Positions 774 to 56,512 of a DNA stretch of 64,000 nt are shown one piece after another. Both the position numbers and the translations under genes were made by a program. Under the pieces are notes generated by a model. The model had not been told where the DNA came from, did not search any database, and worked only from the letters and a program-made list of their open reading frames with translations. Source of the stretch: a virus; IMG/VR virus record IMGVR_UViG_3300045988_165036, positions 1 to 64,000 of that record; one strand, 5' to 3'. Position 1 is the first letter of the stretch. Each line of letters opens with the position of its first letter.

Positions 774-1199
774 GTGAAAGATAAAGAAAAAGAATTAAAA
801 GATAACTTTCAACCACAATGTTACAAAATTCATTTAGATATTTCAACGGTAAATGTTAATAATTTAATCGAAGAATTGTCTAAAATATCCAATATGATTT
901 TTGATGGTCTTGTCCCTGTCGTATACTTGCGGTGGGGATATTTCAAAAAAGATTTAACCGACTTGTTATCAAAAAAGATAACAAAAGAATTTTTCTGCGA
1001 AGAAGTTAAACCTGAATCTTGCGTTGGTCAATCCGACATCGTTTCGGTCTTCTTCAGGGAAAATTATGAAAATACTTTTGCGGAATATATCAACCAAGAG
1101 AAGCAGAAAGAACTTCTGAAAATCGAAGAGAATATTCGCAGAGCAAACGAGCGCTTGAACGAGCGTATCAGAGAAGCAAAGGCTTCTCAAAATAATTAA
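774..1199 (+). CDS. Hypothetical protein (coiled-coil C-terminus)
   Basis: GTG start 7 nt after GGAG (763-766). The ORF track starts at TTG 726, which has no RBS. No recognisable motif. Confidence 0.4.
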   Translation: MKDKEKELKDNFQPQCYKIHLDISTVNVNNLIEELSKISNMIFDGLVPVVYLRWGYFKKDLTDLLSKKITKEFFCEEVKPESCVGQSDIVSVFFRENYENTFAEYINQEKQKELLKIEENIRRANERLNERIREAKASQNN

Positions 1200-1218
1200 A
1201 AAAAGAAAGGAGCAGAAT

Positions 1219-3222
1219 ATGGCAGATAATGTCAAAAACGGGCAAGAGCCCAAAAAGCGCGGCAGACCGCCGAAGGTCAAGCCGGAGCCCGTAGTGAATG
1301 AGGCTCCTGAACGGCTGGAAATGGTTTCAAAATCTAAAACACCAGCATCGATAGAAAATGTGATGAAAGATTTGACCGGGCTTTACAAGAGGGCGCTTAA
1401 TGGCGGCTGGTGCGGCGGTGTTGATTTTAACCAATACAACCCGTTCCTTCAAAATGATAGATTAAAGATGTTAAACACTCGCCCTGGCACAATGGGGAGA
1501 GAGGATTTAACGAAGGCTCTTAAAACTCCGGGGGAAAGTGAACTTGGACTTCGTGCAGAAGCGTGGTCGATGAGTTCGACGCAGTATCTTTATTACAAGA
1601 TTTTGCGTATGGCAGCAGATATCCCGATGTTCAAATATTATCTTGTTCCGGAGCTTCTTGAGAAGACGGAATACAAGAAAGATGATTTCAAAAACGACGA
1701 CAGGTTAGTTGACGAGTGGCTGTCGCAGTTTGACGTTAAAAATACGCTGAAGAAGACTGCGTTGGAAGTGAAACGTGAAGGAAAGGCAATTTATCTTCTT
1801 CGCAACAGCATTTCCGGTACGGGTAAAAACAAAACGGTCAATTATGCAAAGTGGCAAAAATTGCCGAGTGAATATGTTAAACTCGTTAAAATCGGAGAGC
1901 ACGGGTATATTGCTTCGTTCAACTTTATGTTGTTTTTGAATCCGGCATTTTCTGTTTGCCAATATCCCGAATTTATTCAGGACATTTGGAATGATCTCGT
2001 TAACTCTGGGGCTGTTTCTACAGCTGGCTGTGGAAGCGGATATTTGCCGTGCGGCACGTATTCGTTCGCGGATGGAAGAGAAGTTAAACCCGGAATTAAC
2101 GTTAATAAACTTTTGAATTATTCTTATGAATATCGCGGTTCAAATGGAAAAGAAACCCTTCGGGGAAACCTTGAGATTACCAACAAGTCGCTTGCCGAAC
2201 GTTCCTATTTCTTCTGGGTCCAAATGCCGCAGGATTTGTGTTATACATTTTGCAGCGACAGTTCAAATCCGTGGGTTGTTCCCGATACGGCGGGGCTTCT
2301 CCTTTCTCTGGATGAGCTGGCCGATTACGATACACTTCAGGGGCTTGTTGAAAGTACGCCACTGACGGCGCTTTTGACTGCAGAAGCGGAGACGATTCCA
2401 AATCCGAACCCCGGTCAAGACCAGTCTGTTTTGAACCCGGAAACGATTGCCGGAATTGAAGAGCATTTCAACTCGTCGACCTCGACAAACCTTGAGGCGC
2501 TGTTTGCTCCTCTGAAGAATTTCAAGCTTTTGTCTCTTCCGAGTCAACCAAATAGTTCGGAGATCTCTGCAAATGCAACAAAGAATGTTCTGACTCGCGC
2601 CGGACTTGGTGGGCTTATTACGACAACCGATAAGCCTTCTGTTTCGCAGGTTAAAACGGCGCAGTTGCTCGCAGAAGCGGAAGCACATTTTGTCACGCTC
2701 CAATTCGAGTCCGTTTTGAATATGATTATTAATAAAATCATCGGAACAAAGTATCATTGGGGGCTCCATATTTGGGGCGGAATCTTTACATTTAACGATG
2801 AAATCAAGAGAGATAAGGAGCTGTTTGTTGCTGGAGCAACATTTGTTCTTCCGAAACTTGCGTCTGCGTATGATTTGAGCATACGTGACACCCGGGCCGT
2901 TCAGCAATATATCGATTCGTTCGATATTTATGACGACTTCAAGACCGTTACGCAAGTGCGTCAGGAAAATATTAATGAACAAAAGTCTGTTTCAGATACT
3001 ATTTCAACGGGTCGAGCAGGGCGTCCCTCGAAGGACGATTCTGATATCGACAATGATAATACGGCGGCTTCGAAAGACGGCGGGTTGGATACAGCGGACA
3101 CGCGCGAGTATGCAGCAAAAGAGCCGACAATTGGTGTATGCATCGTCTGCGGAGCGGAGTGCGACGGCATTTTATGTGATGACTGTCGTGAGAAATACGA
3201 CGAAGAGAATATGAGGTGGTAA
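1219..3222 (+). CDS. Portal protein (candidate), with C-terminal CxxC...CxxC zinc-ribbon-like tail
   Basis: 667-aa ORF immediately after terL with RBS AAAGGAG. Size and position are typical of a portal. The C-terminus reads CIVCGAECDGILCDDCREKY. No search was run. Confidence 0.55.
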   Translation: MADNVKNGQEPKKRGRPPKVKPEPVVNEAPERLEMVSKSKTPASIENVMKDLTGLYKRALNGGWCGGVDFNQYNPFLQNDRLKMLNTRPGTMGREDLTKALKTPGESELGLRAEAWSMSSTQYLYYKILRMAADIPMFKYYLVPELLEKTEYKKDDFKNDDRLVDEWLSQFDVKNTLKKTALEVKREGKAIYLLRNSISGTGKNKTVNYAKWQKLPSEYVKLVKIGEHGYIASFNFMLFLNPAFSVCQYPEFIQDIWNDLVNSGAVSTAGCGSGYLPCGTYSFADGREVKPGINVNKLLNYSYEYRGSNGKETLRGNLEITNKSLAERSYFFWVQMPQDLCYTFCSDSSNPWVVPDTAGLLLSLDELADYDTLQGLVESTPLTALLTAEAETIPNPNPGQDQSVLNPETIAGIEEHFNSSTSTNLEALFAPLKNFKLLSLPSQPNSSEISANATKNVLTRAGLGGLITTTDKPSVSQVKTAQLLAEAEAHFVTLQFESVLNMIINKIIGTKYHWGLHIWGGIFTFNDEIKRDKELFVAGATFVLPKLASAYDLSIRDTRAVQQYIDSFDIYDDFKTVTQVRQENINEQKSVSDTISTGRAGRPSKDDSDIDNDNTAASKDGGLDTADTREYAAKEPTIGVCIVCGAECDGILCDDCREKYDEENMRW

Positions 3223-8425: not shown

Positions 8426-8522
8426 ATAATAAACCGGGACAGGGAGTAGCTACCTTTTCAGTTGCCGCAACAACTGAATTACCGGTTAATTATAAATAAT
8501 GTGCGCTTTGCGGAGGTGCTAT

Positions 8523-21790: not shown

Positions 21791-21872
21791 AAATGAAAAG
21801 TAAACTGAACAAATGCCTTTCCGGTGGGTGGTTAAACCGGATTTTATAACAATAGAAAGGAGGTCCTCGAAA

Positions 21873-30100: not shown

Positions 30101-32335
30101 GGTCAGGATTATACCGCTGGAACAATAGACCAGATTTATTACAAAGACGGTAAATTTGTTATTGGAGATTCAAAAAATAAGAGCGGTGCCGATCCGCTGT
30201 CTCAAGTTCTGCAAATTACTTATGGAGCGATGGCTCTTAAAAAGTTAATTCAAGAATATGGGAAGGCCAAAAACATCGGAGACGATGAACTTGATAAGTT
30301 CAAAAAACAATATGGAATAGAAGATAGTGCAGAGTTTACTTCAGCTATTGAAGAGGTTCTACAAAAGGGTGATCTTGATAACGCAATTTCTGGAATTATT
30401 ACAAAGTTTGACACAAGAGGAGGATATGTAAAAGCATATCAAACAGATCCACTTAAAGATGCCAAAATGGCGGATTTGTTAGATAGATATTCTAGAGATG
30501 CGTCAGCAATGACTCCCGAAGAGCGTGCTCAGATTGAAAAATATCAAGCAGAATTATATTCCAAAGAATCTCGTATCTTTGCAGATAATCCATCTGAATT
30601 ATCTATTTTTAAATATGACGAATTAATAGATAAAAGTTTTAAAGAATTTGCCAATGCTATTCAAAAAAGAGCAGAATTGCAAAAAAGACTCTTCAAACTT
30701 GAACAAGAAGGGCAAAGAGGAAGTATAGAATATGAATCAGCTCAAAAAGAAATTGACAAACTCAATGCCGGAATTCTTGCAAAAGAAGGAGAAAGATTTA
30801 TTGGCATTGGCGGATCTTATCAAAAAGAAGCTTCTGATTATGCTGATGCGTATGAAAAATCTATTGAGGCATATAAATCTGAATTTTCTTACAACGAAGC
30901 CATAAAAGGCATTTCGGAAGAGAGGAAACTCCAAAGTGAAATCTTCAAGTTAAACAAACAAAAGAGCGCTCTTGAAAAAGAAGATGCTAAAGCCAACGAA
31001 GCCACCATAAAAGAAATTGAAGAGGTTCTAAAGTCTTATCAGCAATCAATTGACTCCATTAAAGCCTATAGAGAACAGCTGAAAGCACTTTATGGCGACA
31101 AATGGGGCGAAGGTGCTGAAGACGGGAAGCAGACCAAACTGAAAGATATTGAGACAAGAGAAAAACTAACGGGGCTTCTTGGCGCAAGAGACGAAAAACG
31201 ACTTGCTGACGCGGAAACAAATTCTGCAACAAAAGAATATATTGCGCTCTTAAATCAACAGCTTCAGCTTGAACTCAAAATTAAGAGCTTTCAACGTGAC
31301 GCTGCTACCAGCAGAGGAAGACAAAAAGAACTTGACCTTCTTGCGGCAGAGGCATATAATGAGCAATTAGAGGAAACCAATAAAAACCTTGAAAAGATCG
31401 ACAAGAGCAAAGTTAAAAACATTGACTCGATCAATGCTGAAAATGAGTTAAAGCGCAATTCCGCGCTTGCCTCTCTTTATGCGAAGAAACCGTATTCTAA
31501 TATCTTCGAATATATCAAAGCAGACATTAGCAGAGCAACTCAGCGTATTGTTGATTTCGGTCTTGCAGCAAAAGTCCTTAATACGGCTCGCAAAGAGATT
31601 CAACAGGTTTATCAAAACATTCTGAAGCTCGACGAAGCGATGACCAACCTTCGTATTGTTACCGGCTCTAACACCGAACAAGCGAAGAGTATGATGAACG
31701 CTTATAATGACCTTGCGATGCAACTTGGCACGACTACGCAAGCTGTTGCACAATCTGCGGCAGAATGGTTGAGACAGGGTTATTCTGTTTCCGAAGCCAA
31801 CGAATTGATCAAGTCTTCGACTTATCTGTCTCGTCTTGGCTTTATGGATATGAATCAGTCTGTTACGGCGCTAACTTCTGTTATGAAGGGCTTCCGTATC
31901 GAAGCAACCGACTCGATGGACATCGTTGATAAGCTGACACAGCTCGACGCGAAGTATGCAACCACGGCTGGAGATATTGCTACGGCTCTTTCGAGAACCT
32001 CTGCGGTTGCTCGTGAGGCGGGTCTTGATCTCGACCAAACTGCAGCAGCGTTGACTACAATGATTGACGTGTCGCAGCAGGATGCGAGCAGTGTTGGTAA
32101 CGCTTTCAGAACGATTCTTGCGAGATACGGGAATGTTAAAGCAACTGCGTTTACTTCTTTGGTTGGCGACTCTGATGATGTTGACGACACAAATAGTTCT
32201 ATAAACGATACCGAAAAAGTACTCGGAGCGATTGGGATTAAAATCCGTTCGTCTTCGAGTGATATGCGTGACTTTGATGACGTTATGGATGAGCTCGCTG
32301 ACAAGTGGGTAACTCTTACCGACGTCGAAAAGAAT
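24131..32335 (+). CDS. Tape-measure protein, exon 1 (2,735 codons)
   Basis: GTG start 10 nt after GGAGG. The C-terminal part carries the TP901/TIGR01760-like core ...AGDIATALSRTSAVAREAGLDLDQTAAALT...GNAFRTILARYG...ELADKWVTLTDVEKN. The last 26 codons of the ORF-track ORF are read-through into the intron. Confidence 0.75.
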
Positions 32336-32637
32336 TTGAAACAAAGTTCCATTATGGAGCAATCCATAATTGCAAACCCATTGAATTGCTGGAACGCCCT
32401 TAGAGTAGTATAAACTAAAACATAGCGATGAAATATACGCAAGTGTGAATGTGGAAAATTATACTGATTGGGTAATCAGCAGCTAAGCTCCGAATAGGAG
32501 AAAGTTCAACGACTAAGTGGTGGCAAGCGCCATCCAGTGGTGGGCTCCACGAAAGTGGATGATGAGATAGTCTAATCTCATATGAAAGTATGAGGAACAA
32601 AAGTTCGTATGATTTAGCGAATCATATAAATAAAATG
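32336..32637 (+). ncRNA. Group I intron 1 in the tape-measure gene (ORF-less, 302 nt)
   Basis: The 5' exon ends in U32335 and the intron ends in G32637. P4-like CUGAUU/AAUCAG (32464-79), Q-like AAUCAGCAGC, R-like GUUCAACGACUAAGUGG (32504-20), S-like GAGAUAGUC (32564-72). P7 is GACUA/UAGUC. P3 is CCAUU(32378-82)/AGUGG(32516-20). P9 hairpin at 32577-94. P1 is weak. Confidence 0.65.
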
Positions 32638-33224: not shown

Positions 33225-33243
33225 AATCTTGGAGGTTTTTCAT

Positions 33244-34017
33244 ATGAAAAAATGGACAGAAGAAGAAATTGAATGGTTAAAAGAGAATTTTCCACATAAA
33301 CAATTTAGCGAAATGGAACGATATCTTAACAGATCTTGTCAAGCTATTACAAAAATGGCGCATAGATTAAAAATCAAAAGAGATGAATTGGTTTATAAAA
33401 ATTTTACAAAGGAACAGGATGAATGGTTGAGAAAGTTCTATTATGATGCGAGTTGGGAAGATCTTTTACAGAAATTTTCAAATTTATCAAAAACGCAAAT
33501 TGAGGCCCGGGCAAAATATCTGAAAATTAAAAGAAAACCAACATTTTATAAGTTCTCTAAAGAAGAAGATGAAACATTAAAAAAGTATTTTGGGAAAATT
33601 TCAACAAAAGAAGTATCCTTGCTCCTTGATGGTAGGGATGAAAAGGCGATATATCATCGCGCAAGAAAATTGGGGCTGGAAGTATATAAAATATGGACAA
33701 AAGAAAAAGACGAGTTTCTTATCAACAATTATGATAAGCTAAGAATAAGGGATCTTATGAAAGCGCTTGGCTTAAATTCTAATACACCAATTTATAATCG
33801 TATGCGAGAACTTGGTCTGCAAAATTGTGGAATTGGAAGAATTTGGAATGATGGAGATGACAGATTTTTAATAGATAATTATAATTTACTAACAAATAAA
33901 GATATTGCTTCTATATTAAAAAGAACAGAAATTGCTATAAAGAGCCGAGCAAGTAATCTTGGTATCAAAAAAGAAATAAATATGGATTGGGAAACAATAC
34001 GCCAGAGCAGTTTATAG
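33244..34017 (+). CDS. Intron-encoded protein built from five Myb/SANT-like HTH repeats, with no recognisable nuclease motif
   Basis: ATG 33244 lies 8 nt after GGAGG. Five ~48-aa repeats start WTEEEIEWLKENF, FTKEQDEWLRKFY, FSKEEDETLKKYF, WTKEKDEFLINNY and WNDGDDRFLIDNY. Each ends in a basic helix (..HRLKIKR, ..AKYLKIKRK, ..ARKLGLEV, ..MRELGLQN, ..ASNLGIKKE). Confidence 0.6.
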   Translation: MKKWTEEEIEWLKENFPHKQFSEMERYLNRSCQAITKMAHRLKIKRDELVYKNFTKEQDEWLRKFYYDASWEDLLQKFSNLSKTQIEARAKYLKIKRKPTFYKFSKEEDETLKKYFGKISTKEVSLLLDGRDEKAIYHRARKLGLEVYKIWTKEKDEFLINNYDKLRIRDLMKALGLNSNTPIYNRMRELGLQNCGIGRIWNDGDDRFLIDNYNLLTNKDIASILKRTEIAIKSRASNLGIKKEINMDWETIRQSSL

Positions 34018-34152: not shown

Positions 34153-37100
34153 GTCAGACAGCGTAATATTTTCGGGATCTATATGGAAAATTACGACACA
34201 TACAAACAGGCAATTTCTGAAGCCGAAAAAGCCCAGGGAACCGCCGCTCGTAAAATGCAGGCGTATAATGAAAGTGTTGCGTATAGTATCAATCAGCTCT
34301 CTGCGGCATGGGAAGGATTTACGCAAAAACTTGAGGCAAGTCCGGCCGTCAAGGGTATTTATTGGATTTTGACGCAAGGAATAAAGAATCTTGATCACAT
34401 TTTGCAGTGGTTAATACCCATTATCGCAACATTTAATGCCGATAAAATCGTAAGTCTCGCTAAATTTTTGTTTCCTTTGGTGACGGCTATTCCGAAAGCG
34501 GTTGGAAATGGATTTAAAGATCGTCACGGTAATGAATTCTATGAAAATATGACTCAAAAGATGACCGCAGAAAATACCAATGCTATTGAAGAGTTAACCA
34601 ATGCGACAAAAGATAACACTGCGGCATTAAGAGGAAGAAAGTCGAAGAGCGGCGCTGGCGGAGTTGGTAAAGCAGATGAGGGGGCAACACCAAAGGGCCC
34701 CAAAACAAAACAAAAGCCATATCAAAAGTATACATCTGATGTAAGGTCTCGCATAGATAGTCTTAATTATCATATTTCTGAAGCGGAAAAACAAGGAAAT
34801 GTTTCGGACGTAGAAAAACTTAAGAAAATTAAGTCGGAAGAATTAAGAAAAATAGAAGGAAACAAACCGGAAATTATTTCTGCGTATAGAAAAGATACCA
34901 GGGATGCGACAGAATTAGCCCAAAAACAAATTAATGAAATTGACAAAAGAGTGCAAGATTCAAAGGCTAACGCCCTTATGAGAAAAGAAATTGCGGAAAA
35001 TGCCCATAAAAACGGGCAGGTACAATCGAAACTTAAAGAGAAGGACAGAAGGGCTGAAGCTTCGCAGATTCACGCGGCTGAAATGGAGGCTTCTGGAGAG
35101 CAGCAGAAGGAGCAGATATTTAAAGAAAGAAACGATAGGCTCAAAGAGATTAAAAAACGGACAAAAAAAGATTTACGAGAAGAAAATAAGAGATTAAAAC
35201 AACAGGAAGAGGAATATAATAGAGCCAATAGCACTGGGAGAGCTAAAACCAGAACAGACGTAAAAGAACTCGCCCCAGAAGAACGCGCAAATCTTGAGGC
35301 TCAAAAGAAACTGGAGCGTTCCGCTCGTCTAAAGACCGGTGTTGTTTCTGGCATTGGCGCCGGAGCCGTTCGCTTTGCAAACAAAGGATCAAGTTTCCTC
35401 GATGAGGCTATGGGTGTTTCTGGTGTCGAAGTTGACACCGGTGAAGCTCTTGCAATGGGCGTTGCTCAGGGTGCTCTAACTGGAGTTGCGACTGCGTTTA
35501 TGGGACCTGCCGGAGCAGTTCTTGCCTCAATTCTTGGAGACGTTTTGTCTTCTTTCTGGAAAAAAATTGCTCACGCAGACGAAATTGATCGTAAACAGCG
35601 TGTCGAAGATGCCAAAAAACAACTCGAAGCAATTAAAGGGATCGAAAGTTCAGTTACTGGTTTGATTGATTTAAACAAAAAAAATCAAGCGCTGTGGGAT
35701 TCTGATGAATGGAAACAATTCAACGAACAGGTTGAAACAATCAATGAAGCTCTTGAAAAATCAGAGCTCGGAGATAGAATAATCAACCTCGGCAACAGTA
35801 CACAAACCCTTTCTGAATATTTCGAAGAAGCGGCAAGAACCGGAAATAAAGATATGCTTTCTCGCGTCGAAGCGGAGAGAATTCGTTTTGAGGCTGAAAA
35901 GACATACGCTGCAGGAGAACAGGATCGTTATACCCTCCAAAAAGAGATTAACGAGAATCAAAAGAAGCTCGCAAAGCTTGATAACGACGAGATATCGAAA
36001 AGGAAAGAACTTAACGTAGCAATCAAAGCTGCGAGGTCAGAAATTAAAGACTATTCCGAAGCCCTGAAGAGGGGTTATATGCAAGCGTCGTTCTACTCTT
36101 CTGGCGTTGGAACAATGGAGTCTTATGACATTGGAAACGCAACGCTTGATAGAGTAATTATGCAAATCGCTCGAGAATGGGCAAAAGATAGTCCTGATAT
36201 TTTTGCTGGAAATCAGCTGACGAGCGATGCTCGTTTCGAAATTATTTCGTATCTGCGAGAACAGCCGGGCTATTCTTCTCTGTTTAAAAACGACACGAAG
36301 AATGTTGGAGATATGTTAACAGCAAGAGACGCAGTTGATGATTTGAGAAAATCTCTTAATATGTCTCAAAAACAATTGAAAGAGTTTGCCAATAGTAAAG
36401 ATCTTCTTAAAATTGGAAAGTCTTTCGGTTTAATTAAAGATGATATTATTGATATTAATCAATTGTCAGAAGCAGACAAATCTGCTGTTTATAAATTGAT
36501 CGATAAAATTAATCTTGTTGATGAAGACGGAATTACAACAATTGCACACGCAATGAATATGACCGTTGAAGAATTTGAAAGAGCAAATGCAGATGGAGCA
36601 TTTAACTGGCTAACAGCTGATGTTGCGATTGGTGGAATAGATAAGTTAAATGAAAAAATGCAGACATTTAACGATTTGTTATCTGCAGCATCCGAGGGTT
36701 CCCTTTTAACTTCTGAAAATCTAAACAAGATTGCAAATCAATTCCCAACATTGCTCCGTGGAGTTGACGAAGCTGGGAAATATACAAAAGATTTGAGCTC
36801 CGATAATATTCTTGATAATATAATCAGAATGATGACAGACGAAGATTCCTTACGAGAAATTTATTCTGGACTATTTTCTGGAAGCGTAGCAAAAGATTCT
36901 GAAATCTGGAATAATTTTATGACCCTTGGAAAAGGAAGCGAAATTGCTAATTCCAATCTTTCTGAAGAGATTAAAGAGCGTATTAAAAAAGCAGGCTCTT
37001 ATTCTGATATCGTCGATATTTTTGCAATGGATAAGATGAAAGAATATAATGACGCGTTTAAAGAGTATGTTACAAGTATGTATCCAATAACTGATTTACT

Positions 37101-38694
37101 TGATGCACAAGCAAAGATTTTGGAGGAATACGGAAAATATACTCTAGAGACAGAGATTTCTAATCTTGAGTCGGTTCGAGATTCTCTTGACGATGTTAAT
37201 AAACAGCGCGAGAAGGAACTTGAACTGATTAAAGCAAAAGAAGCTCTTGAAAATGCATCAAAAGAAAAGAAGCGCATATATCGTGCTGGAGTCGGATTTG
37301 TCTATACGACAGATCAAGAAGCTGTTAAATCTGCGCAGGGAAAAGTTGACGAACTAGAAAGACAACGTGACAAAGACAATATTCAATATCAGATTGATTC
37401 GTTGCAACAGCAGAAAGAAATTCTTGAAAATATTGAAAACAACAAGCAATTAGAGTCTCTCGTTGATACCGCAGAAAGGATTCTCGGTAGCGATGGTTCG
37501 AATAATGGCATTGCCGGAATTATTACTGCCGTTAATTCAATAACTAGTGATGAATTTATAAATAAAATCAAAGAACAGGTTAAGACCGGGATTACTGAAT
37601 CAATTCAAAAAACAAACGACGAATCAAAAGAATCGGCTTACAAGAGCTATAAAGAGGCACAGTCTAGCTTAGAAGATTTTCGCAAAGAAGAATATGTGAC
37701 GCCAGAGGGAGAAAAAACAGGGTATGCAAAAGGAGATATTTTGAATAATCCAAGATCCCCATATTATTCTTCTGTTTATGACGAATATAAGTCTAAAATA
37801 AATAGCGTGAATAAATATGCTGAAAATTACAATAAGTATGTACAAGATAATTCTAAAAAAATCAGCAAAGAAAAGGCTGATGAGTCTAAGCAAAAATTCG
37901 GGTTTTTTGCTCCTGCATCGGGGTTAAAAAGAGTTATGGGAGCAAAGTCGGGAAACGTATTTGTATTCGGAATAAGCCCGAGCGTTAATCCAAATTGGGC
38001 AAGTAACGATCAATACACAGCAGGGAATTCTTCTAATATTTATATATCTAAACAAACTGATGATGGCGGTTTTGGTGGATTTGAACAATCTCCGTGGAAG
38101 GGGACGGCAGAAGAGGCAATAAATAAAGTAAAAGGACCCGCCCTAATTGTAAACAATAAAGGTGGAAAAGACTATTTAATTTATAAAGATGTTAATGGGG
38201 AAATCCATAATACTGTTGTTAGATTAAATAATGGAGACGAGTCTTTAGATGGGGAGCTGAGTTATGATGCATTTTTTAATGGGAAAGTTTTTAGTGGATC
38301 TAATGGCTTAAAGGCATTAAGAAAAATGGCTGATAATTATAATCCATTTGCTTCTGGTACTCTTTCAGCCCCTGGTGGTCGCTCCCTGATCAACGAAAAC
38401 GGTCTTGAATCCATTATTACTCCTTCTGGAACAATCACTTCTCTTCCTGCTAAATCTGGCATTGTTCCTGCCGATCTTACTCGTAACTTGTGGGCTCTTG
38501 GTGAGGTTGCCCCTAACCTTATTGCTCGTCTTGGTGGCAACAGTCTCCAGACCAACAATTCTAATTCTTCTACTGACAATTCGATCAATATTCAGAATCT
38601 TGATGCTACGTTTAATACGCAAAGCGATTTCGACGGACGTCGATTCTTAACAGATCTTCGTAATCAGGTTATCTTGACTGCAAATAATCATTAA
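34153..38694 (+). CDS. Tape-measure protein, exon 3 (1,513 aa)
   Basis: Begins GTC AGA CAG CGT... = VRQRNIFGIYMENYDTYKQAISEAEKAQGTAARKM (consensus RQxNxFxxLMxNyd). Contains hydrophobic Gly/Ala segments. The C-terminal motif GGRSLINENGLESIITPSGTITSLPAKSGIVPA is typical of tape-measure C-termini. Confidence 0.75.
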   Translation, partial: VRQRNIFGIYMENYDTYKQAISEAEKAQGTAARKMQAYNESVAYSINQLSAAWEGFTQKLEASPAVKGIYWILTQGIKNLDHILQWLIPIIATFNADKIVSLAKFLFPLVTAIPKAVGNGFKDRHGNEFYENMTQKMTAENTNAIEELTNATKDNTAALRGRKSKSGAGGVGKADEGATPKGPKTKQKPYQKYTSDVRSRIDSLNYHISEAEKQGNVSDVEKLKKIKSEELRKIEGNKPEIISAYRKDTRDATELAQKQINEIDKRVQDSKANALMRKEIAENAHKNGQVQSKLKEKDRRAEASQIHAAEMEASGEQQKEQIFKERNDRLKEIKKRTKKDLREENKRLKQQEEEYNRANSTGRAKTRTDVKELAPEERANLEAQKKLERSARLKTGVVSGIGAGAVRFANKGSSFLDEAMGVSGVEVDTGEALAMGVAQGALTGVATAFMGPAGAVLASILGDVLSSFWKKIAHADEIDRKQRVEDAKKQLEAIKGIESSVTGLIDLNKKNQALWDSDEWKQFNEQVETINEALEKSELGDRIINLGNSTQTLSEYFEEAARTGNKDMLSRVEAERIRFEAEKTYAAGEQDRYTLQKEINENQKKLAKLDNDEISKRKELNVAIKAARSEIKDYSEALKRGYMQASFYSSGVGTMESYDIGNATLDRVIMQIAREWAKDSPDIFAGNQLTSDARFEIISYLREQPGYSSLFKNDTKNVGDMLTARDAVDDLRKSLNMSQKQLKEFANSKDLLKIGKSFGLIKDDIIDINQLSEADKSAVYKLIDKINLVDEDGITTIAHAMNMTVEEFERANADGAFNWLTADVAIGGIDKLNEKMQTFNDLLSAASEGSLLTSENLNKIANQFPTLLRGVDEAGKYTKDLSSDNILDNIIRMMTDEDSLREIYSGLFSGSVAKDSEIWNNFMTLGKGSEIANSNLSEEIKERIKKAGSYSDIVDIFAMDKMKEYNDAFKEYVTSMYPITDLLDAQAKILEEYGKYTLETEISNLESVRDSLDDVNKQREKELELIKAKEALENASKEKKRIYRAGVGFVYTTDQEAVKSAQGKVDELERQRDKDNIQYQIDSLQQQKEILENIENNKQLESLVDTAERILGSDGSNNGIAGIITAVNSITSDEFINKIKEQVKTGITESIQKTNDESKESAYKSYKEAQSSLEDFRKEEYVTPEGEKTGYAKGDILNNPRSPYYSSVYDEYKSKINSVNKYAENYNKYVQDNSKKISKEKADESKQKFGFFAPASGLKRVMGAKSGNVFVFGISPSVNPNWASNDQYTAGNSSNIYISKQTDDGGFGGFEQSPWKGTAEEAINKVKGPALIVNNKGGKDYLIYKDVNGEIHNTVVRLNNGDESLDGELSYDAFFNGKVFSGSNGLKALRKMADNYNPFASGTLSAPGGRSLINENGLESIITPSGTITSLPAKSGIVPADLTRNLWALGEVAPNLIARLGGNSLQTNNSNSSTDNSINIQNLDATFNTQSDFDGRRFLTDLRNQVILTANNH

Positions 38695-44500: not shown

Positions 44501-45361
44501 ACTGGCACTATTAAAGTCTCTATTCCAGAAGCAATTAAATCGATAGATTCAGATGGATTTGTCACTCTTTCAGACGATATTAACAAAGTTCAGATTGGAC
44601 CAAACTCCTATCTTAGAATAATTGATAAAACTGGAATAGTGTCAAAGTCAAAAGAATGGCAAAATTCCAGCGAATTCCATAACACATCGATTTGGCAGGT
44701 TGGCGGAATTGTTCCGAACGGGGACAGAATTAATGTTGCTAATTTTAAATATGCGGAAGTGGATAATGGAGATGGGACATATAACAAAGACACATATTTA
44801 AATATCGCCGGTCCGTTTAACACAAATTCGGATGAGGCGATACGAAATCCGATGGCAAAAAACGAACAGCCTTTCTCTTTTTATGATAATAAAAATATTA
44901 CTATGAAATGTAAAGATGGAGACCAAATAGTTGCCTTTCAAATCAATCAACCCGATAAACTTATCTGGGTTGATAACACGCCGGAAGGAAGTCCGAAAGA
45001 TGTTGTTATCAACGCAAATGGATCAGTCGTTACATCACAGCCAAGATCTGTTTTGTCAAAAGTGGCTCTTATATGGGACGACAACGCTGTTTGGAAAGAC
45101 GGAACATATTTGGAAAACGGAACCGGTCTTTCTGCTAAAATCGGGGAAGTACGAGTCAACGGGAATGTTGTCGAGATTGACGCAATCTCTGGAATAGAAA
45201 ACCCAACATATACGAATACTGATCTTGTTAAACAAGAAAAAGTTCAGGCATCAATCAAAGAGAGAGAGAATCTTTTGAAAACCAATCTTTCATTCAGAAT
45301 CTTTATTAATACAAATAATTTTACAATAGATCAGTTGAGAAGTGTTTGTTATGTCAATTAA
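41564..45361 (+). CDS. Large tail/baseplate protein (1,265 aa)
   Basis: RBS AAGGGGG. Size and position downstream of the tape-measure gene fit this role. No motif recognised. Confidence 0.4.
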   Translation: MAIYKPTDCSPFNGTFDLSSDLPIVFECKIDTSNSPVTGYSIEIYNSNNEIIFPGANRTTGPIKSNVTYLTDLKEYVATNFSSLLPNLKNINSGLNGSYLEIPFYVKEIDAKVDSTVSRNQMSENSIPNLVEGQTYTWKITLYQEVRKGDSVSATTDDSIFPPNAEKYYDMVVTSGTIIGPNEKRIQTALIDSDDKVVDNLVLIDKFVQPIKIDRLSGYDPSNPVTSWSGTIPKSFTMTRSLISGYDSTYGYIYPSTAEDNALAEGQIAEETTNGFQIFKNGNNPANLTATDMVEFVYNEKKTKGEMVWKSNVAKPELSYWEQTYYQTADPNGTYYPLSGDYYSYPISSEERIIFNNIQESKVEFDKKYYGSPYNGVFKPDFSSKKIELKFEDLDGKRIIPAGLYLIKKNPSLTTLSCNISFSSFCPDINIQDNYIYSDIFIKPGSISYIENDVGTIVAYEDGEWTDEKCRYISISSDIKEPYSYELIRFYNWLKNNIESDICYQIKTQWLRTPDATTWGALSNKVVYCRQDGKNYEVNTKTQAGETNNTPFKFVAEKPVRIFNTVSKQSNTVTFSEDSEGLPGTYFGNVNEKISSLTSVVLANGVDITKNCLYSVGDGEIVIKTGGKINPDNIAVTYVPYAQRDYAGVIFYNKQTKSNSDTGIIYIRPSININKNMIFKEITTTAKPTWFNINYFNKDYNYITYIGNQGFNPEIDKTRYQIKSFYKDSDYNPFSIYKNPKIVSTISENVIDSDRGINAITTRNFTVTSTYSQDNYIQWKSYQWILYDSAKRTVLAKTDEQYGGEITATFYGLESQQYYILSLILQTNTGKIIEIDYVIYSNFTETAEQRDLVDAEFDCDTLAMEASLKFLDVVLAPDADQYLSGAAIPIKNTAYYYDLKSGFYKKENQAVASVDNGVLTITGQNSLDFSKSFENYAINSSTRTGSIQIDADEIVVEGSFDFSKDYNGDIFSVSRGEEGTGTIKVSIPEAIKSIDSDGFVTLSDDINKVQIGPNSYLRIIDKTGIVSKSKEWQNSSEFHNTSIWQVGGIVPNGDRINVANFKYAEVDNGDGTYNKDTYLNIAGPFNTNSDEAIRNPMAKNEQPFSFYDNKNITMKCKDGDQIVAFQINQPDKLIWVDNTPEGSPKDVVINANGSVVTSQPRSVLSKVALIWDDNAVWKDGTYLENGTGLSAKIGEVRVNGNVVEIDAISGIENPTYTNTDLVKQEKVQASIKERENLLKTNLSFRIFINTNNFTIDQLRSVCYVN

Positions 45362-45393
45362 TTATCAAAATACAAAGAAAGGAGCTCCGAATT

Positions 45394-46563
45394 TTGAAAT
45401 TAAAATTTTCGATTGGACCTGGGGATTCGTTAAATCCCGGAGTTCTTAATTCAGTTAGTACACAATATTTAAGCTCAAATTTTTTTTATTTATCTTCGTC
45501 CGAAAACGGAATTGCTCCAAGGGCGCAGGACGGAGCTCCAGAAAAAATCAACAACGCGAACATTCAGCAAGTTCTTGACGAAAACCTTCGTTCTGTTATC
45601 GGTCTTTTTAATTTTGAAGATATTAAAAAGGGCGAAGAAATAGTTGCGACTGCGGCAGCGGAAGGAGTTTCTAACGCCGACCAGTCGTTGTACGCGGTTT
45701 CTGTTTACAAGAAAGAAATTTGGTATGATAGAGAGACTGGAAAATCAATGGAGGAACCCGTTTGGACCCCCGTCGTATTAAATGAATCCTCTAATATTAT
45801 TCGAGACTTCAATATTGGAAATAATCGTTATTATAAATATGTTTTTCGACTTGTTGAAAACAAGACCGACGGAGGACTCGAATACCAGTCTGGAATTATT
45901 GTTCCGATTAAAACAAGTTGGCAGGGGTGGTCAATTACAGAACTTCACGAAACAGACGATCCGAAAGTCTTTACAGCCGCCCCAAAAGATGTTTGGAAAT
46001 TTAAGTATAATATTTCCAACGGAGCACAAACACAGAATGTCGCTAAAACACAGCAGGACACGCTGTCCCGATACCCGATTTTCAGTCACGGTGTGAAAAA
46101 TGCAGTTGGCGGAAGCGTTACCTGTTTGCTTGGTCGTGAAATGATTAACGCAGATTACACCAATAAAGAGTGGGTTTATGAACAAGCCCCGAATACATCA
46201 GAACCGAATTTTATCTGGAGAGAAAATAACGGGCCGTTCGAAAATCTCGGCGGTTATCGAGAGCGTCTTGGAAGGGTTCAAAACTTTTGCGGAACAAACC
46301 CCGATTATCTTTCCGCTTCAGTTCTTGGTTTCCGCAATTTAACATCTAACGAAGCAGTCGATATGCTCGACAAGTGGCGCGATGTTTGTTATTCCGGAAA
46401 TCCGAAACTGTTAAAAGATCAAAAGGGTCAAACTTTTATTATTCAAATTACCGATCCGAGCAATACTACGAACGAGGCTTGGGAGAAGATGCCAGAAGAA
46501 ATTTCGTTTAGCTGGATTGAGATTGCCGACGCAAAATACTGTCGTATCATTCAGACAGAATAA
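45394..46563 (+). CDS. Baseplate/tail protein candidate
   Basis: TTG start 9 nt after GGAG. The ORF track starts at 45346. The call rests on position only. Confidence 0.35.
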   Translation: MKLKFSIGPGDSLNPGVLNSVSTQYLSSNFFYLSSSENGIAPRAQDGAPEKINNANIQQVLDENLRSVIGLFNFEDIKKGEEIVATAAAEGVSNADQSLYAVSVYKKEIWYDRETGKSMEEPVWTPVVLNESSNIIRDFNIGNNRYYKYVFRLVENKTDGGLEYQSGIIVPIKTSWQGWSITELHETDDPKVFTAAPKDVWKFKYNISNGAQTQNVAKTQQDTLSRYPIFSHGVKNAVGGSVTCLLGREMINADYTNKEWVYEQAPNTSEPNFIWRENNGPFENLGGYRERLGRVQNFCGTNPDYLSASVLGFRNLTSNEAVDMLDKWRDVCYSGNPKLLKDQKGQTFIIQITDPSNTTNEAWEKMPEEISFSWIEIADAKYCRIIQTE

Positions 46564-46639
46564 CAGAAAGGACTAGTTGTTAAGTAGTCTGTTTTATAGA
46601 CAAAAGCACAGACAGGTGGACAAGTGTATTATTACATTT

Positions 46640-46890
46640 CTTGTCTGTACTTGCTTGACAACAGGTTTCAAGCTTTAGTGAATGCTGTTTTACGAAAGTA
46701 ATCCTGCATGATGAACTACGTTGGGGAAAAGGTTAAAAACGCATCTTCGGATGTACTCGTCAGTCTGAAGCTCTGCGAGTGCCAATCAAGAAACTGTGCT
46801 AGTGTCCTGCATAGATAACAGAGAAACACATATACCCTCCCCGACATTGGCAAGACGAAAATTACTCCGAAAGGAAGGCATCCAGAGATG
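46640..46890 (+). ncRNA. omega-RNA candidate upstream of iscB
   Basis: Dense hairpins, for example GCATC-UUCG-GATG at 46741-54. The segments CUGCGAGUG, GGCAAGAC and CUCCGAAAGGA run into the iscB RBS/start, as in published IscB omega-RNA scaffolds (from memory). The 5' end and guide are not defined. Confidence 0.5.
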
Positions 46891-48135
46891 GAAAACAAAA
46901 TTGAATACTGCTTTGTGGTTGATAAAAACAATCGGCCATTGGCGCCGACGAAAGTTAATAAAGGCTGGTATCTGGTTAGAAAAGGCAGGGCAAAAATAAA
47001 ATCCAGATATCCTATGGTAATACAGTTGGAAAAGGAAGTGGAACCTGATGAAGATGATGAAAGCCATATGGTCTGCGGTATTGATGACGGTTCTATGCAT
47101 GTAGGGCTTGCCATTGTTCAGAAATGTCCTACCAAAAATAAAGTGGTTTTTAAAGGGACGATGGAACAACGCCGGGACGTAAAACATTTAATAGATATCA
47201 GACGTGGATATAGGCGTTATCACCGTTATCATAAAAGATACAGGCAGACAAGATTTAATAACCGTTCATCTTCTAAACGAAGCAACAGGTTGGCGCCAAG
47301 TATCAGACAGAAGAAAGATGCTGTTTTAAGGGTATTGTATCGGCTTAATAAGTGGTGCAACATCCAGGAATACTTCCTTGAAGATGTCTGCATGGATGTC
47401 CGTGCAATGACAGATGGTTACAAACCCTATAGTTGGCAGTATCAGAAATCTAACCGTTTGGATGAAAACCTTAGAAAAGCCGCTATTCTGAGAGATAATT
47501 ATAAATGTCAGGAATGTGGGAAATCCGGCTGTGTGTTAGAAGTACATCATATCAGGGCAAGAAAATATGGCGGAGCAGATACCATTGGGAATCTGATCAC
47601 GTTATGTGGAAAGTGTCATGATAAAACAAAAGGCAGAGAGCGGGATTTTGAAAACAGATATTTTGATATGATCAAATCCCAGCCGAAAAAATTTGATTAT
47701 GCTATGCATGTTATGCAGGGAAAAACCTATCTGAGAGAAAAGATTTCTGAATTAGGAATATTGCATCTTACAAATGGCGGGGATACTGCTAATAAACGCA
47801 TTAACTGGAATATAGAAAAGTCCCATAGTAATGATGCGATATGCATTACAGATAGTATTCCTGATACGTGTGATGTGAAAGAATGGATTATTAAGCCAAT
47901 GAGAAGGAAGTCGAAAGCTAAAACGGATAATGTGTTAGGAATTAAGCATAGGGATTTAGTTTCTTATACATATAAAAATGGAGAAACTCATACAGGATAC
48001 GTCACTGCTTTATATCCAGAACGAGTAGCTTTGAATTTTCAATCAAAAACCAAACATTGTAAAAAAGTAAATGCGCGAAAATGCAAATTGCTTTGGAGGT
48101 TTAATAATATTTATTGGTTAGAACAACGCGTATAA
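46888..48135 (+). CDS. iscB: IscB RNA-guided nuclease (PLMP-like domain, split RuvC, bridge helix, HNH, C-terminal TAM-interaction domain)
   Basis: N-terminus [29 protein letters not shown] (PLMP-type). Ruv[19 protein letters not shown]. Arg-rich bridge [22 protein letters not shown]. Ruv[55 protein letters not shown]. Ruv[13 protein letters not shown]. 415 aa. Confidence 0.85.
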
Positions 48136-48185
48136 TTTTACATATTCGTCTATATAAGCATATTTTGAGAAAGGGGGGCGGCATT

Positions 48186-49445
48186 ATGCCACAGATTTCT
48201 AACCAAATCAAAATGGGATCTGGCGAAAATTATAAGTATATCATTGACGGGAAGAATGCCGCCGTCGGCGATATTAAAAAGTATTTAAAAATTTCAGAGA
48301 TTAAAAAGATTATTGGAAGAAAAACAATTTACCCTCGATTCCGTATTTTTGTTTTGAATCCGGACGAAACAGTGAATTATCAGCTTCCAAACGAAGACAT
48401 TTTGTCCGGTGGTTCGTATAGTGAAAATTATCAAAACGGTTCTCGCCGGACGCTGTCTTTTTCATTAAACAATCAAGAAGGAAAATATACTCCGTCGATC
48501 AATAATTTGTGGGTAGATACGAAAGTTCGACTCGATGTTGGGTTGGAAGTTCCGGACGAAAATCTAATTATTTGGTTTCATAAAGGCGTTTTTGTGATTA
48601 CTTCTGCCGATCCATCAAAATCGACAGAAACCAAAACGGTGCCTATAAGTTGTGCTGACAAGTTCGAAATTTTGAATGGAAAACGCGGAACGGTTGGAAC
48701 GACGGTCGAGATTCCTCCAGGTATGCCAATCAGAGATGTTATTCAAGACATTTTGTGGTATGACAGCGGGACAGGCGATGTTCTCGACCCGATTCCGTTC
48801 TTTTATCATCCCGCGTTTGAGGGAAAAGTAACGCCGATTACGATAACACTGTCCGCCGGGTCGAATTATGGGAATTTGATTATGCAGATTGCGGATGTTC
48901 TGTCTGCAGAGGTCTTTTATGACTCCTACGGACAGTTAAATTTCGTTCCGGTTATTGATGTGATTTCTGACGGAGACAAACCAAACCTTTATGATTATTC
49001 AATTGAACATCTGCAAAATGAAAACTTTTCAATTGATTTAAACTCTTTTGTCAACTGTGTTTATGTTGTAGGGGCAAATATCAATGGACATATTTGCACG
49101 GCAGTTAAAAAGAACGAAGATCCGACTTCTCCGATTTCGGTTGGAAGAATCGGGCTTCGTGTCGCTGATGTGATTAATGACTCCAACATTACGACAGACC
49201 AATTGGCGGAAGAACGGGCAGAGTATGAATTGCGGAAAAAGATCATATCGGAAAGCACATTAAGCAGTTCTGTTATGTTTAATCCGCTTTTAAGTGTTAA
49301 TAATATAGTAACATATACAGATGAGGAAGATTTCGATATGAAACGAGAAAGATTTTTAATCCAGAGCATTTCCTTTAACTTGGGATACGACGGACTAATG
49401 TCATTGAACGTTTCGAATGTAAATAATCTTTCGTTTGTATATTAA
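48186..49445 (+). CDS. Baseplate/tail protein candidate
   Basis: ATG 48186 follows GAAAGGGGGG. The ORF-track start 48114 overlaps iscB and is unlikely. Confidence 0.4.
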   Translation: MPQISNQIKMGSGENYKYIIDGKNAAVGDIKKYLKISEIKKIIGRKTIYPRFRIFVLNPDETVNYQLPNEDILSGGSYSENYQNGSRRTLSFSLNNQEGKYTPSINNLWVDTKVRLDVGLEVPDENLIIWFHKGVFVITSADPSKSTETKTVPISCADKFEILNGKRGTVGTTVEIPPGMPIRDVIQDILWYDSGTGDVLDPIPFFYHPAFEGKVTPITITLSAGSNYGNLIMQIADVLSAEVFYDSYGQLNFVPVIDVISDGDKPNLYDYSIEHLQNENFSIDLNSFVNCVYVVGANINGHICTAVKKNEDPTSPISVGRIGLRVADVINDSNITTDQLAEERAEYELRKKIISESTLSSSVMFNPLLSVNNIVTYTDEEDFDMKRERFLIQSISFNLGYDGLMSLNVSNVNNLSFVY

Positions 49446-54595: not shown

Positions 54596-56512
54596 ATGGA
54601 AATTAGCATTAATCTTGATAATGATTTTGAACTGGAATTAAAAAAGCTTGAGGCAAAATATGGGGAAGAGATTACAAAAATTAACGGATTTTCTTCTGAC
54701 CAATTGGACTATACGAGTTTTATAGACAATTTTGTCGATAGTGATAATGTTGCTAATGCAACGATCGATCCTAATGCTAATGCTAATTCAAAGGATGCTC
54801 GTGGGCTATTAGACGAAATGAACAAGCCACACTCTAAATTATTGAGTTTTAATAAAATTTATTATGAAATCAAAAAGAAATATGACAAAAAAGTTGCAAA
54901 CAAATGGTTAGAAGATGAGTTTTCTGGTGCTCTTTATATGCATGACGCCCCCTCCTCTTCGTTTTATTCATATTGTTACGCTTATGAGCTTCAAAATTTA
55001 GCAGAAAAAGGATTATACTTTTTGCCGAAAAGCAATACAGAACCTCCGAAGCATTTAACAACTTTTATGGCACATTTGCGCGAATTTATTGTATGGGTAT
55101 CTAATAGAACCGCTGGTGCTTGCGCCCTTCCGAGCTTTTTTGTATATACGTGGTATTTTTGGAATAAGGATGTTCAAGAAGGATATTATTTAAAAAATCC
55201 AGAATACTACAGAAAACAAATGTTTCAGCAATTTATTTTTGAGGTAAATCAAATTCATACTAGAATAATTCAGTCCGCATATACAAATTTAATTATTATG
55301 GACCGTAATTATTTGACTGAAATTTTTGGAGACCGTCAATTCCCCGATGGCTCTTATGTTATTGACCACATTGAGGATATTATTGAACATCAAAAAATTT
55401 ATATGCAAACGGAATCAGAGATTCGTCACGAAGTATTTCACACATTTCCTGTTTATACATATTCTCTTCTGTTTCAAAATGGGAAATTTGTAGATGAAGA
55501 GTTTGCGCGCTGGTGCAATAAACAAAATCTTGATTGGTATGATAGCAATTTTTATGTCGGAGATTCTGTTACAAATCTCGCGTCGTGCTGTCGGATGCTT
55601 AACGATTTGTCGAAGCAGAAACAGTTCCAGTCTAGTATTGGGGGAAGTCTTGTTGAAATAGGATCTGTAAAAGTTAGCACAATTAATTTAATGAGGGTTG
55701 CATTGGAGTCCGGAGGAGACAAAACAAAATTTATTAAAATTTTAAAAGACAGAACGAAATTAAATATGCTCGTCTTGGATCGGGTTAGATACATTATTAA
55801 AAGGAATATTGAAAAGGGGCTTCTTCCAAACTATTCATACAATGTTATCAACTTGGATAAACAAACAACCACAAACGGTCTTACAGCAATGTTTGAGGCA
55901 ATCAAGTATATGGGGATGACGCAAACAGACGATTTGGGATGCATCAGCTACACGGATGAGGGTGTTAAGTTTGCTTGCAAAATTATGGACACGGTTAATG
56001 AATTACAAGATTCTGCTGGTTATGATTATAATGTGTCGTTGGAAATTATTCCGGCTGAATCTGCGAATGTGAAACTGTGTAAAAAGGATAATATTATTTA
56101 CCATAGAAATGAAGAGTTTATTTATTCAAACCAATGGACAAGTTTGATGGCAAAATGCAGTATTAATGAAAGAATTAAACTTGCTTCAATTCTTGATAAA
56201 AAGGCCGGAGGTGGTCAAATTCTCCACATTTCTCTTGAGGGAGCAAGGCTTACTGAAGACGAGAGCTGGAAACTGCTTAATCATATTGCGAACAGTGGCG
56301 TAATTTATTTTGCTTTTAATCCAAAACTTTCTTTGTGTGAAAAACAACATACATTTTTTGGAGAAGTATGTCCAATTTGCGGAAGACCAAAAGTAGATGA
56401 AGCAAGTCGTATAGTTGGTTATCTAGTAGCAACGTCTTCATATTCCAAAGATCGTAAGAGCGAATACGAAAATAGAATGTGGTATAAGGTCGGAGAAGAC
56501 CAATATTTGTGA
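54596..56512 (+). CDS. nrdD: Anaerobic ribonucleoside-triphosphate reductase (class III)
   Basis: 638 aa. C-terminal Zn site CEKQH...CPICG, followed by the glycyl-radical motif SRIVGYL. Adjacent to the activase gene. Confidence 0.85.
   Translation: MEISINLDNDFELELKKLEAKYGEEITKINGFSSDQLDYTSFIDNFVDSDNVANATIDPNANANSKDARGLLDEMNKPHSKLLSFNKIYYEIKKKYDKKVANKWLEDEFSGALYMHDAPSSSFYSYCYAYELQNLAEKGLYFLPKSNTEPPKHLTTFMAHLREFIVWVSNRTAGACALPSFFVYTWYFWNKDVQEGYYLKNPEYYRKQMFQQFIFEVNQIHTRIIQSAYTNLIIMDRNYLTEIFGDRQFPDGSYVIDHIEDIIEHQKIYMQTESEIRHEVFHTFPVYTYSLLFQNGKFVDEEFARWCNKQNLDWYDSNFYVGDSVTNLASCCRMLNDLSKQKQFQSSIGGSLVEIGSVKVSTINLMRVALESGGDKTKFIKILKDRTKLNMLVLDRVRYIIKRNIEKGLLPNYSYNVINLDKQTTTNGLTAMFEAIKYMGMTQTDDLGCISYTDEGVKFACKIMDTVNELQDSAGYDYNVSLEIIPAESANVKLCKKDNIIYHRNEEFIYSNQWTSLMAKCSINERIKLASILDKKAGGGQILHISLEGARLTEDESWKLLNHIANSGVIYFAFNPKLSLCEKQHTFFGEVCPICGRPKVDEASRIVGYLVATSSYSKDRKSEYENRMWYKVGEDQYL

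Follow-up and report, generated by a model that had tools for sequence, protein, structure and literature searches.

A non-autonomous IscB element in the tail module of a gut phage that probably homes between phages

An IscB element in front of a phage tail gene

We analyzed a 64,000-nucleotide stretch of viral DNA (positions 1 to 64,000 of IMG/VR record IMGVR_UViG_3300045988_165036, hereafter the window), in which an iscB gene and a structured leader lie in front of a tail gene. The evidence below makes it probable that this locus is a non-autonomous IscB (OMEGA/ISC, IS200/IS605-superfamily) element in a gut phage of ~134 kb, and that the element homes between phages. Comparison with relatives shows a discrete 1.6-kb unit made up of a predicted omega-RNA scaffold and iscB, whose nuclease is intact and under purifying selection. 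The comparison set comprised about 100 related viral contigs, with IscB relatives on 74 IMG/VR viral contigs. These 74 loci were on 74 different contigs, i.e. one copy per phage, which fits homing rather than proliferative transposition. The window likewise contains only one left-end motif and thus no second copy. A preliminary description of the window had proposed homing against element-free sibling genomes among several roles, and this is the role best supported by the comparative data.

The mobile element spans 46572..48174 on the plus strand (1,603 bp; 5'-ACTAGTTGTTAAG ... TTTTGAGAAAGG-3'), its right end being uncertain by ±1 nt because of a G run. Among the 74 copies from viral contigs, DNA homology breaks off near 46567-46572 and near 48160-48177. 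A sharp left junction is seen in 28 unrelated flanks, all of which adjoin ACTA(A/G)TT(G/A)TT; such conserved ends at many sites (28 distinct left flanks) are those of a transposon. Four related phages (L001-L004 in our numbering of loci), found via the downstream tail protein, miss exactly the element stretch, and their empty site reads ...CAGAATAACAGGAAGG/GGGCGGCATTGTG (here and below a slash marks the junction). The guide, target-adjacent motif (TAM) and element ends had been considered undefinable from the window alone; comparison with relatives gives the ends at 46572-48174, a guide and a probable TAM.

The right end of the element (48136..48174, plus strand) closes with GAGAAAGG (48167-48174), and the last three bases are AGG at 25 of 25 sites. 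This terminal stretch gives the tail gene downstream the 5' half of its Shine-Dalgarno core. The right flank (48175..48188, plus strand) continues with GGGGCGGCATT and then the ATG of the tail gene (48186), and its first bases are the probable TAM. Placing the right end at ...ATTTT, with the remainder as flank, was rejected by the empty alleles. The element is inserted between co-oriented genes, in the same orientation as these, from a stop codon to the next start codon, so the precise fit between stop codon and next ribosome-binding site reported at the outset holds.

At the window site (site A) and at a second site in front of the portal gene (site B), the 7-8 bp AGAAAGG are found at both junctions. 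A target-site duplication was rejected by the empty alleles of two further sites, L010 and L009. The empty L010 site reads CGTAGTTAGG/AGAAGAAAAT, and the occupied one ...TAGTTAGG/ACTAATT... on the left and ...TTTTATAAAGG/AGAAG on the right. The empty L009 site reads ATTAAAAGG/AGAAAC, and the occupied right end ...TTTTAGACAGG/AGAAAA. Since AAAGG is missing from both empty alleles, the right-hand copy is borne by the element and there is no duplication. Insertion at L010 and L009 is thus site-specific and without target-site duplication, as described for the IS200/IS605 superfamily (PMC4810608).

The element splits Shine-Dalgarno cores

We saw about 27 different occupied sites and built site logos from 25 non-redundant ones. 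In the consensus the left flank ends in (A)AAGG, the element ends in TTTTxAAAGG, and the right flank opens with A/G, G/A, G/A, with the start codon mostly 5-13 nt further on. In nearly all cases the element therefore splits the Shine-Dalgarno core AAGG/AG. Judged from these consensus sequences, its own 3'-terminal AAAGG rebuilds the downstream ribosome-binding site. In the papers searched we found no description of an insertion that splits a Shine-Dalgarno sequence and restores it, and the sites suggest a niche adaptation not reported before.

The end of the left flank also resembles the 3' end of the element. Across the 25 sites the mean common suffix was 4.24, against 3.47±0.18 after shuffling (P = 0.0006), which hints at a preference for targets that look like the end of the element itself. 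This likeness, together with the AGAAAGG shared by the two junctions of site A and of site B, would also be expected if a conservative site-specific recombinase acting on a short core (…AAAGG) had acquired new sites, be it an IS607-type serine enzyme or a phage tyrosine enzyme, with no Y1 transposase involved. GG is present at both junctions, IS607 integrates at GG, and IS607 TnpB proteins use the TAMs AGGAG or GAGGG (PMC13565253). The window moreover encodes a tyrosine recombinase at 21813-22904. Against such an enzyme, at several sites the two copies have only AGG in common, no serine recombinase (IS607-like) was found among the 33 window open reading frames (ORFs) scanned with Pfam, iscB has not been found linked to serine resolvases (PMC10055086), and nothing ties the integrase to the IscB element. 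We consider this route very improbable.

Empty and occupied alleles carry a homing signature

In the comparisons the element is present in some phages and absent from others at orthologous sites, it is younger than the flanks around it, and co-conversion follows a gradient; all of these are signs of homing. Site A is occupied in the window and empty in L001-L004. The reverse holds for site B, which is empty in the window and, on the contig of L001, occupied by L005, an element of 94% identity that precedes the portal gene. The unoccupied site B in the window (1191..1221, plus strand; AATAATTAAAAAAAGAAAGG/AGCAGAATATG, junction near 1210) lies in front of the portal gene. Its 12 bases at the junction equal the inferred L005 guide exactly, farther out its A run is one base shorter, and AGCAGA follows the junction. 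It is thus plausible that the window genome is itself a target of its sibling's element.

The preliminary description had recommended a search with the guide against related phages lacking the insertion, and such empty alleles were found. At site A, those of L001, L002 and L004 have 2-3 mismatches in 20 to the window guide. Site L010 is occupied in 8 relatives and lacks the element in 17. Of its empty alleles (L094-L116, upstream of position 2501), 14 were compared with the guide; seven agree with it at 20 of 20 positions and continue with AGAAGA, and the variants among them have 1-2 changes 9-10 nt from the junction, which could reflect either drift or escape from cleavage. Site L009 is occupied once and empty five times. 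Occupied alleles and empty ones that match the guide perfectly occur in the same metagenome data set (3300045988).

We next compared the elements with their surroundings. Ten chosen pairs occupying the same site had 0-33 differences in the ~1,600 bp of the element (0-2%), whereas their flanks (800+800 bp) differed by 1.2-16% (Fisher P from 1e-4 to 1e-66). Taking all 106 informative pairs, the element was more alike than either flank in 67, and in 8 both flanks were more alike than the element. An element at 0.1% between flanks at 10% does not result from purifying selection, because synonymous sites would diverge. Identity between carriers also decreased with distance from the element. On the left it was 98.7% in the first 100 bp (0-100 bp), 95% at 100-400 bp, 90% at 400-800 bp, 88% at 0.8-1.6 kb and 84% at 1.6-2.4 kb. 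On the right it was 97.8% in the first 50 bp (0-50 bp) and then ~92, 91, 89 and 88-91%. Read from these alignments, the decay is the co-conversion pattern expected from double-strand-break repair.

This pattern bears on two further explanations. The first is that the element is an ordinary passenger, a non-autonomous insertion of ISC/IS605 type that depends for all movement on a Y1 TnpA from the host or from elsewhere in the phage. IscB would then home only restoratively, on sister copies after excision, and the element would not spread between phages. Such a passenger would match the published life cycle (PMC10055086, PMC4810608), and the roughly 27 sites mean that real transposition occurs. 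The ends also look IS200/IS605-like, with no duplication at L010 and L009, a strict site preference, a hairpin on the left and GTCTAT at the right end. The left hairpin (GTCTRT...ATAGAC) covaries and lies 15 nt from the left end, inside the omega-RNA, so that RNA and DNA roles are inseparable. The right end of relatives has a palindrome across the stop codon and a GTCTAT... motif, which are candidate subterminal Y1 hairpin features. On the other side, no Y1 TnpA was found among the same 33 window ORFs, as had been reported before, yet absence is normal for iscB: tnpA lies near only ~1.5% of iscB genes (PMC10055086). A single copy per contig in 74 contigs is also unlike the multi-copy bacterial ISC families. 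Finally, near-identical elements within flanks diverged by 1.2-16%, together with the gradient, need recombination between genomes, which goes beyond retention. Altogether we regard the passenger explanation as unlikely.

The second is that IscB is kept as a weapon, either destroying element-free competitors, with homing as a by-product, or cutting DNA of the host or of other phages. Homing endonucleases can kill competitors that are too divergent (reviewed in PMC13565253), the guide matches element-free relatives from the same metagenome data set, and iscB is under strong purifying selection. Conversely, a guide set by the sequence left of the insertion targets only the orthologous locus of relatives (other matches were neither sought nor found), and the co-conversion gradient indicates that cut genomes are commonly repaired and not lost. 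This makes a weapon improbable as the main role.

Several points weigh against homing between phages. The pairs compared lack phylogenetic independence, and uneven identity can also arise from phage mosaicism alone. Repeated, independent site-specific transposition of one circulating element into the same preferred site would also yield young elements in diverged flanks, though it would leave the flank gradient unexplained. The closest sampled relatives, with empty site A, are imperfect targets (2-3 mismatches in 20 nt). The transposase screen covered 64 kb of a genome of ~134 kb, the Rfam HEARO score lies below the gathering threshold in the window and in relatives, and guide length, RNA 5' end and TAM are all inferred.

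Guide, TAM and proposed mechanism

The inferred omega-RNA guide, CAGACAGAATAACAGAAAGG (46552..46571, plus strand), comprises the last 20 nt of the left flank and lies outside the mobile element. It takes in the stop codon of the upstream gene (46561-46563) as well as the 5' half of the Shine-Dalgarno core as it was before insertion. The left flank is taken as the guide because the scaffold, with its outermost helix P1, begins at element base 1. The left flank differs wholly from site to site, and the start of P1 stays fixed at that base. The guide would accordingly sit at the 5' end of the omega-RNA and be encoded outside the element, the flank being transcribed into the RNA. A guide inside the element, as might be read from a HEARO match beginning 47 nt past the boundary, was rejected on the grounds that P1 starts at base 1.

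Following the guide match, empty alleles continue with AGAAGA, AGAAAC, AGCAGA or GGGCGG, and occupied loci with ACUA. From the 25 right flanks and four sets of empty alleles, the first bases of the right flank (AGR or GGG) are the probable TAM. A purine-rich TAM would then give discrimination between self and non-self, as the carrier has ACU at this place.

From these observations we propose the following mechanism. Read-through of the late tail operon would yield an RNA that starts with the last 16-20 nt of the left flank, serving as the guide, and continues as the scaffold. IscB with this omega-RNA would recognize the same flank in an element-free phage genome, followed by AGR or GGG as the probable TAM. 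The carrier genome would be spared, as ACU follows its flank. A break in a co-infecting or sister genome would be repaired from the carrier, so that the element and some of its flank are copied into the empty site. Jumps to new sites would be rare and may involve a Y1 transposase in trans or another route.

A broader proposal, which we put forward tentatively and hold at somewhat below even chances, is that of a phage-adapted IscB lineage. It would constitute a transposase-free, RNA-guided gene drive that lives in Shine-Dalgarno cores, uses the remaining half as its TAM, and spreads by break-induced copying through diverged gut and Staphylococcus phages. If the TAM is indeed the remaining half of the ribosome-binding site, there would be a target beside almost every gene.

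The leader is a divergent omega-RNA

The gap between the upstream stop codon (46561-46563) and the ATG of iscB is 324 nt, of which 316 nt belong to the element, and this leader contains no convincing ORF. It holds the segments CTGCGAGTG, GGCAAGAC and CTCCGAAAGGA. We place the omega-RNA scaffold, of a divergent HEARO type, at 46572..46875 on the plus strand, where it runs into the ribosome-binding site GGAAGG of iscB (start 46888). Two lines of evidence, an Rfam match and covariation, indicate that an omega-RNA is encoded directly upstream of the IscB ORF.

The Rfam HEARO model (RF02033) matched 46619-46865 end to end (model positions 1-211; 34.4 bits, E 8.5e-5). The covariance-model search proposed earlier thus returned the expected family at a score short of the gathering threshold of 83. 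This threshold is missed by the window (34.4), by L010 (35.9) and by the Staphylococcus phage locus L090 (36.7). Because of the weak HEARO score, the leader structure was tested directly by covariation. For this we aligned 33 distinct leaders drawn from IscB relatives on IMG/VR viral contigs. The consensus fold has 64 pairs, with standard pairs in 98.4% of cells. Compensatory changes occur at 21 of these pairs; column shuffles gave 9.5±1.8, and none of the 500 reached the observed values. In a control where partners were slid by 1-3 columns, only 2-5 compensatory pairs remained. These results agree with the omega-RNA leader proposed at first. By its fold the leader is like HEARO/omega-RNA in function, and it is best described as a divergent subfamily poorly captured by the Rfam model.

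The outermost helix, P1, is formed by a 5' strand at 46572..46585 (ACUAGUUGUUAAGU; element bases 1-14) and a 3' strand at 46653..46666 (GCUUGACAACAGGU), both on the plus strand. In 11 of the 33 sequences P1 shows a switch from G-C to A-U, and G·U wobbles are present as well. The wobbles and the compensatory switch mean that the constraint acts on RNA. A second covarying hairpin pairs CUUCGGAU (46745-46752) with GUCUGAAG (46763-46770), and its loop is UUCA or UUUA in relatives. The UUCG-capped hairpin noted earlier (GCATC-TTCG-GATGT) was rejected as a conserved fold, as covariation supports the pairing of 46745-46752 with 46763-46770 instead and the loop varies.

Similarly, TTGACA at 46655 had been put forward as a possible omega-RNA promoter, which we rejected. 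The hexamer lies within the 3' strand of P1, relatives have CTTAACAAT or CTTAGCAAC in its place, and a transcript begun there would miss the guide and half of P1. A promoter scan of 45300-48400 gave 13 sites against 9.6±3.4 in shuffles, i.e. no excess. In the same scan no terminator-like site was found on the plus strand from the neighbouring genes to the element.

HEARO RNA and the window leader have in common a long-range helix, the conserved GCUCUG...GAGUG and GGCAAGACGAAA segments, and a position directly upstream of an HNH/RRXRR ORF. They differ in the P1-enclosed region, which is variable.

The ORF encodes a complete IscB

The iscB gene lies at 46888..48135 on the plus strand and encodes 415 aa, as defined by the ORF call, Pfam, PDB alignments and a motif check. 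Pfam RRXRR matched residues 9-187 (E 5.9e-46) and HNH residues 207-247 (E 1.5e-11). In a PDB search the top match was HfmIscB (9k2z; E 2e-249, 830 bits, residues 4-414), followed at lower ranks by TbaIscB, several OgeuIscB entries, Cas9d-like proteins and IsrB.

All motifs of the full IscB architecture listed in the preliminary description are present. The N-terminus has the PLMP-like RPLAPT at aa 16-21. RuvC-I contains GIDDGS with D66, RuvC-II contains LEDV with E165, and RuvC-III contains SHSNDA with H313 and D316. The bridge helix is an Arg-rich stretch with RFNNR at aa 122-126. The HNH segment comprises CQEC (207-210), EVHHI with H220/H221, N235 and CGKCH (240-244), including two CxxC pairs, and the C-terminus is the TAM-interacting region of the domain layout. 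A split RuvC with an HNH insert, an Arg-rich bridge helix and a PLMP-type N-terminus were thus recognized across the HfmIscB, TbaIscB and OgeuIscB alignments. D66, E165, H220/H221, N235, H313 and D316 align with their counterparts in OgeuIscB and HfmIscB, none being substituted. We take their catalytic roles to be those known from OgeuIscB. On these alignments the ORF is a complete IscB with intact catalytic residues of RuvC and HNH. Comparison with six relatives gave a dN/dS ratio of 0.07-0.13, so the IscB protein is kept by selection.

The window protein shares family and architecture with HfmIscB, TbaIscB (9k30) and OgeuIscB (7xht, 7utn, 8csz), including the catalytic D/E/H/H..D, FNNR and the HNH zinc ligands. 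It differs from HfmIscB at ~1 residue in 10 in the printed alignment. The deposited HfmIscB chain has A at the position of window H220, presumably an engineered inactive HNH. With 415 aa the window IscB is shorter than OgeuIscB (496 aa).

Relatives of this gene are named 'HNH endonuclease' in databases (PHROG 2214 and 119; phage records), which would fit a simple HNH homing endonuclease that finds its target by protein alone, the structured leader being merely a 5' untranslated region. The full split-RuvC and HNH architecture, the near-identity to a solved IscB and the HEARO-type fold with covariation all speak against this. The profile and structure matches, which place the ORF within IscB, effectively refute it, and its probability is negligible.

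Relation to known mobile elements

The ISC element type was described by Kapitonov 2016 (PMC4810608), and its nuclease-driven retention by Meers 2023 (PMC10055086). In canonical IscB systems the transposon boundary excludes the guide, which comes from read-through of a co-oriented gene upstream, and IscB cuts empty donor joints (PMC10055086). Like the window element, non-autonomous ISC/IS200-IS605 elements (PMC4810608, PMC10055086) are 1.3-1.7 kb long, encode iscB only, have an omega-RNA upstream with the guide outside the boundary, follow a co-oriented upstream gene, insert site-specifically without duplication, and usually lack tnpA. Split targets such as GT/GG are known among them; the target of the window family is the Shine-Dalgarno core AAGG/AG, restored by the element 3' end. 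ISC/IS200-IS605 elements reside in bacterial chromosomes, whereas the window family is found in phages at one copy per genome. They are retained after excision, whereas the evidence for the window family points to transfer between genomes.

Free-standing homing endonucleases of T-even phages (Seg, Mob; 'intronless homing') are likewise intergenic nuclease genes between conserved phage genes, with presence/absence polymorphism and co-conversion of flanking markers (PMC13565253). Seg and Mob distinguish self from non-self by sequence differences in a nearby gene; the window element would do so by the insertion itself, through a guide RNA copied from the flank, as in intron homing. IS607-family TnpB elements share junctions at GG and have Shine-Dalgarno-like TAMs, AGGAG or GAGGG (PMC13565253). 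They encode TnpB and a serine recombinase and carry the guide at the 3' end, none of which applies to the window element.

More than 16% of HEARO/IscB contigs have already been classed as viral or prophage (PMC9755519), and TnpA-independent spread of IS605 among plasmids has been discussed (PMC13565253). Homing into co-infecting phages has so far been only a theoretical category (PMC13565253), and our literature search found no population-level evidence for phage-to-phage homing of IscB. So far, the biological role of IscB has been demonstrated solely in bacterial elements linked to TnpA, in which IscB brings the element back once it has been excised. The window element is of a known kind and unsurprising as such, and it would be a clean natural case for RNA-guided homing in phages; the window locus and its ~100 relatives provide natural evidence for homing into co-infecting phages. 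The family may also be of interest for genome editing, being compact (415 aa) and probably having a short purine TAM.

Phage context and distribution of relatives

The window represents a phage structural module, with portal, tape-measure-like, tail and tail-fibre matches, as well as dUTPase and NrdD; no tRNAs were found in it. The gene downstream of the element matches PHROG 1887 'tail protein' and Pfam DUF5048, and the upstream gene had no matches in the Pfam and PHROG searches. The element had been described as lying between baseplate genes. The tail-module context is sound, and the baseplate assignment is unsupported by these matches. The identical IscB protein is found on gut-metagenome contigs of 134,160 bp.

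No near-identical phage genome was found in GenBank/INPHARED. These databases did contain distant Staphylococcus phage IscB loci and two uncultured 'Bacteriophage sp.' records matching the omega-RNA. Relatives also occur on contigs assigned to bins of Gemella, Erysipelothrix, Lachnospiraceae, Veillonella and Clostridiaceae, which are probably phage contigs in bacterial bins. The same IscB/omega-RNA family occurs in cultured Staphylococcus phages of the Herelleviridae, where it is labelled no more precisely than 'HNH endonuclease' or 'HEARO' (PMC13346280), and this makes the homing idea directly testable. In the Staphylococcus phage vB_SsapH-Golestan101-M of the Twortvirinae (LC557520; L091, 2413-3946; L092, 396-1505) the junctions are GACAGTAAGG/ACTTACTAAATAAG and CACATTTTAAAAAGG/GGATACTTGTAAATATG, at the Shine-Dalgarno sequence. 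In these Herelleviridae phages a separate TnpB (OrfB_IS605 and Cas12f1-like TNB), annotated as 'transposase', is encoded ~1.4 kb downstream; it is a TnpB and not a TnpA. In L090 (PV017447) the reading frame of IscB continues into the gene that follows, and the element seems degraded at its right end.

Other candidate mobile features were observed in the window, all on the plus strand unless the strand is left out. A tyrosine recombinase (21813-22904, plus strand; Phage_integrase 9e-15 and an N-terminal SAM-like domain) sits in the middle of the structural module, in a phage that is large and otherwise looks lytic-type. A free-standing 599-aa ORF between structural genes (8499-10298, plus strand) matches PHROG 3339 'homing endonuclease' (E 4e-103) and Pfam DUF7487, and is a candidate for a second, protein-guided selfish nuclease in the window phage. 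Further on, a group I intron (32326-32594, plus strand; Rfam Intron_gpI 84.6 bits, gathering score 50, E 4e-20) lies at the 3' end of a 2,760-aa ORF (24131-32413). It is followed by a 262-aa ORF (33229-34017) with weak DNA-binding matches, and then by a 1,503-aa tape-measure-like ORF (34183-38694). An intron with a homing-endonuclease-like ORF may here interrupt what is a single giant tail gene. Lastly, the NrdD gene (54596-56512, plus strand) matched its PHROG profile in two separate stretches, and may carry an insertion such as an intein or intron.

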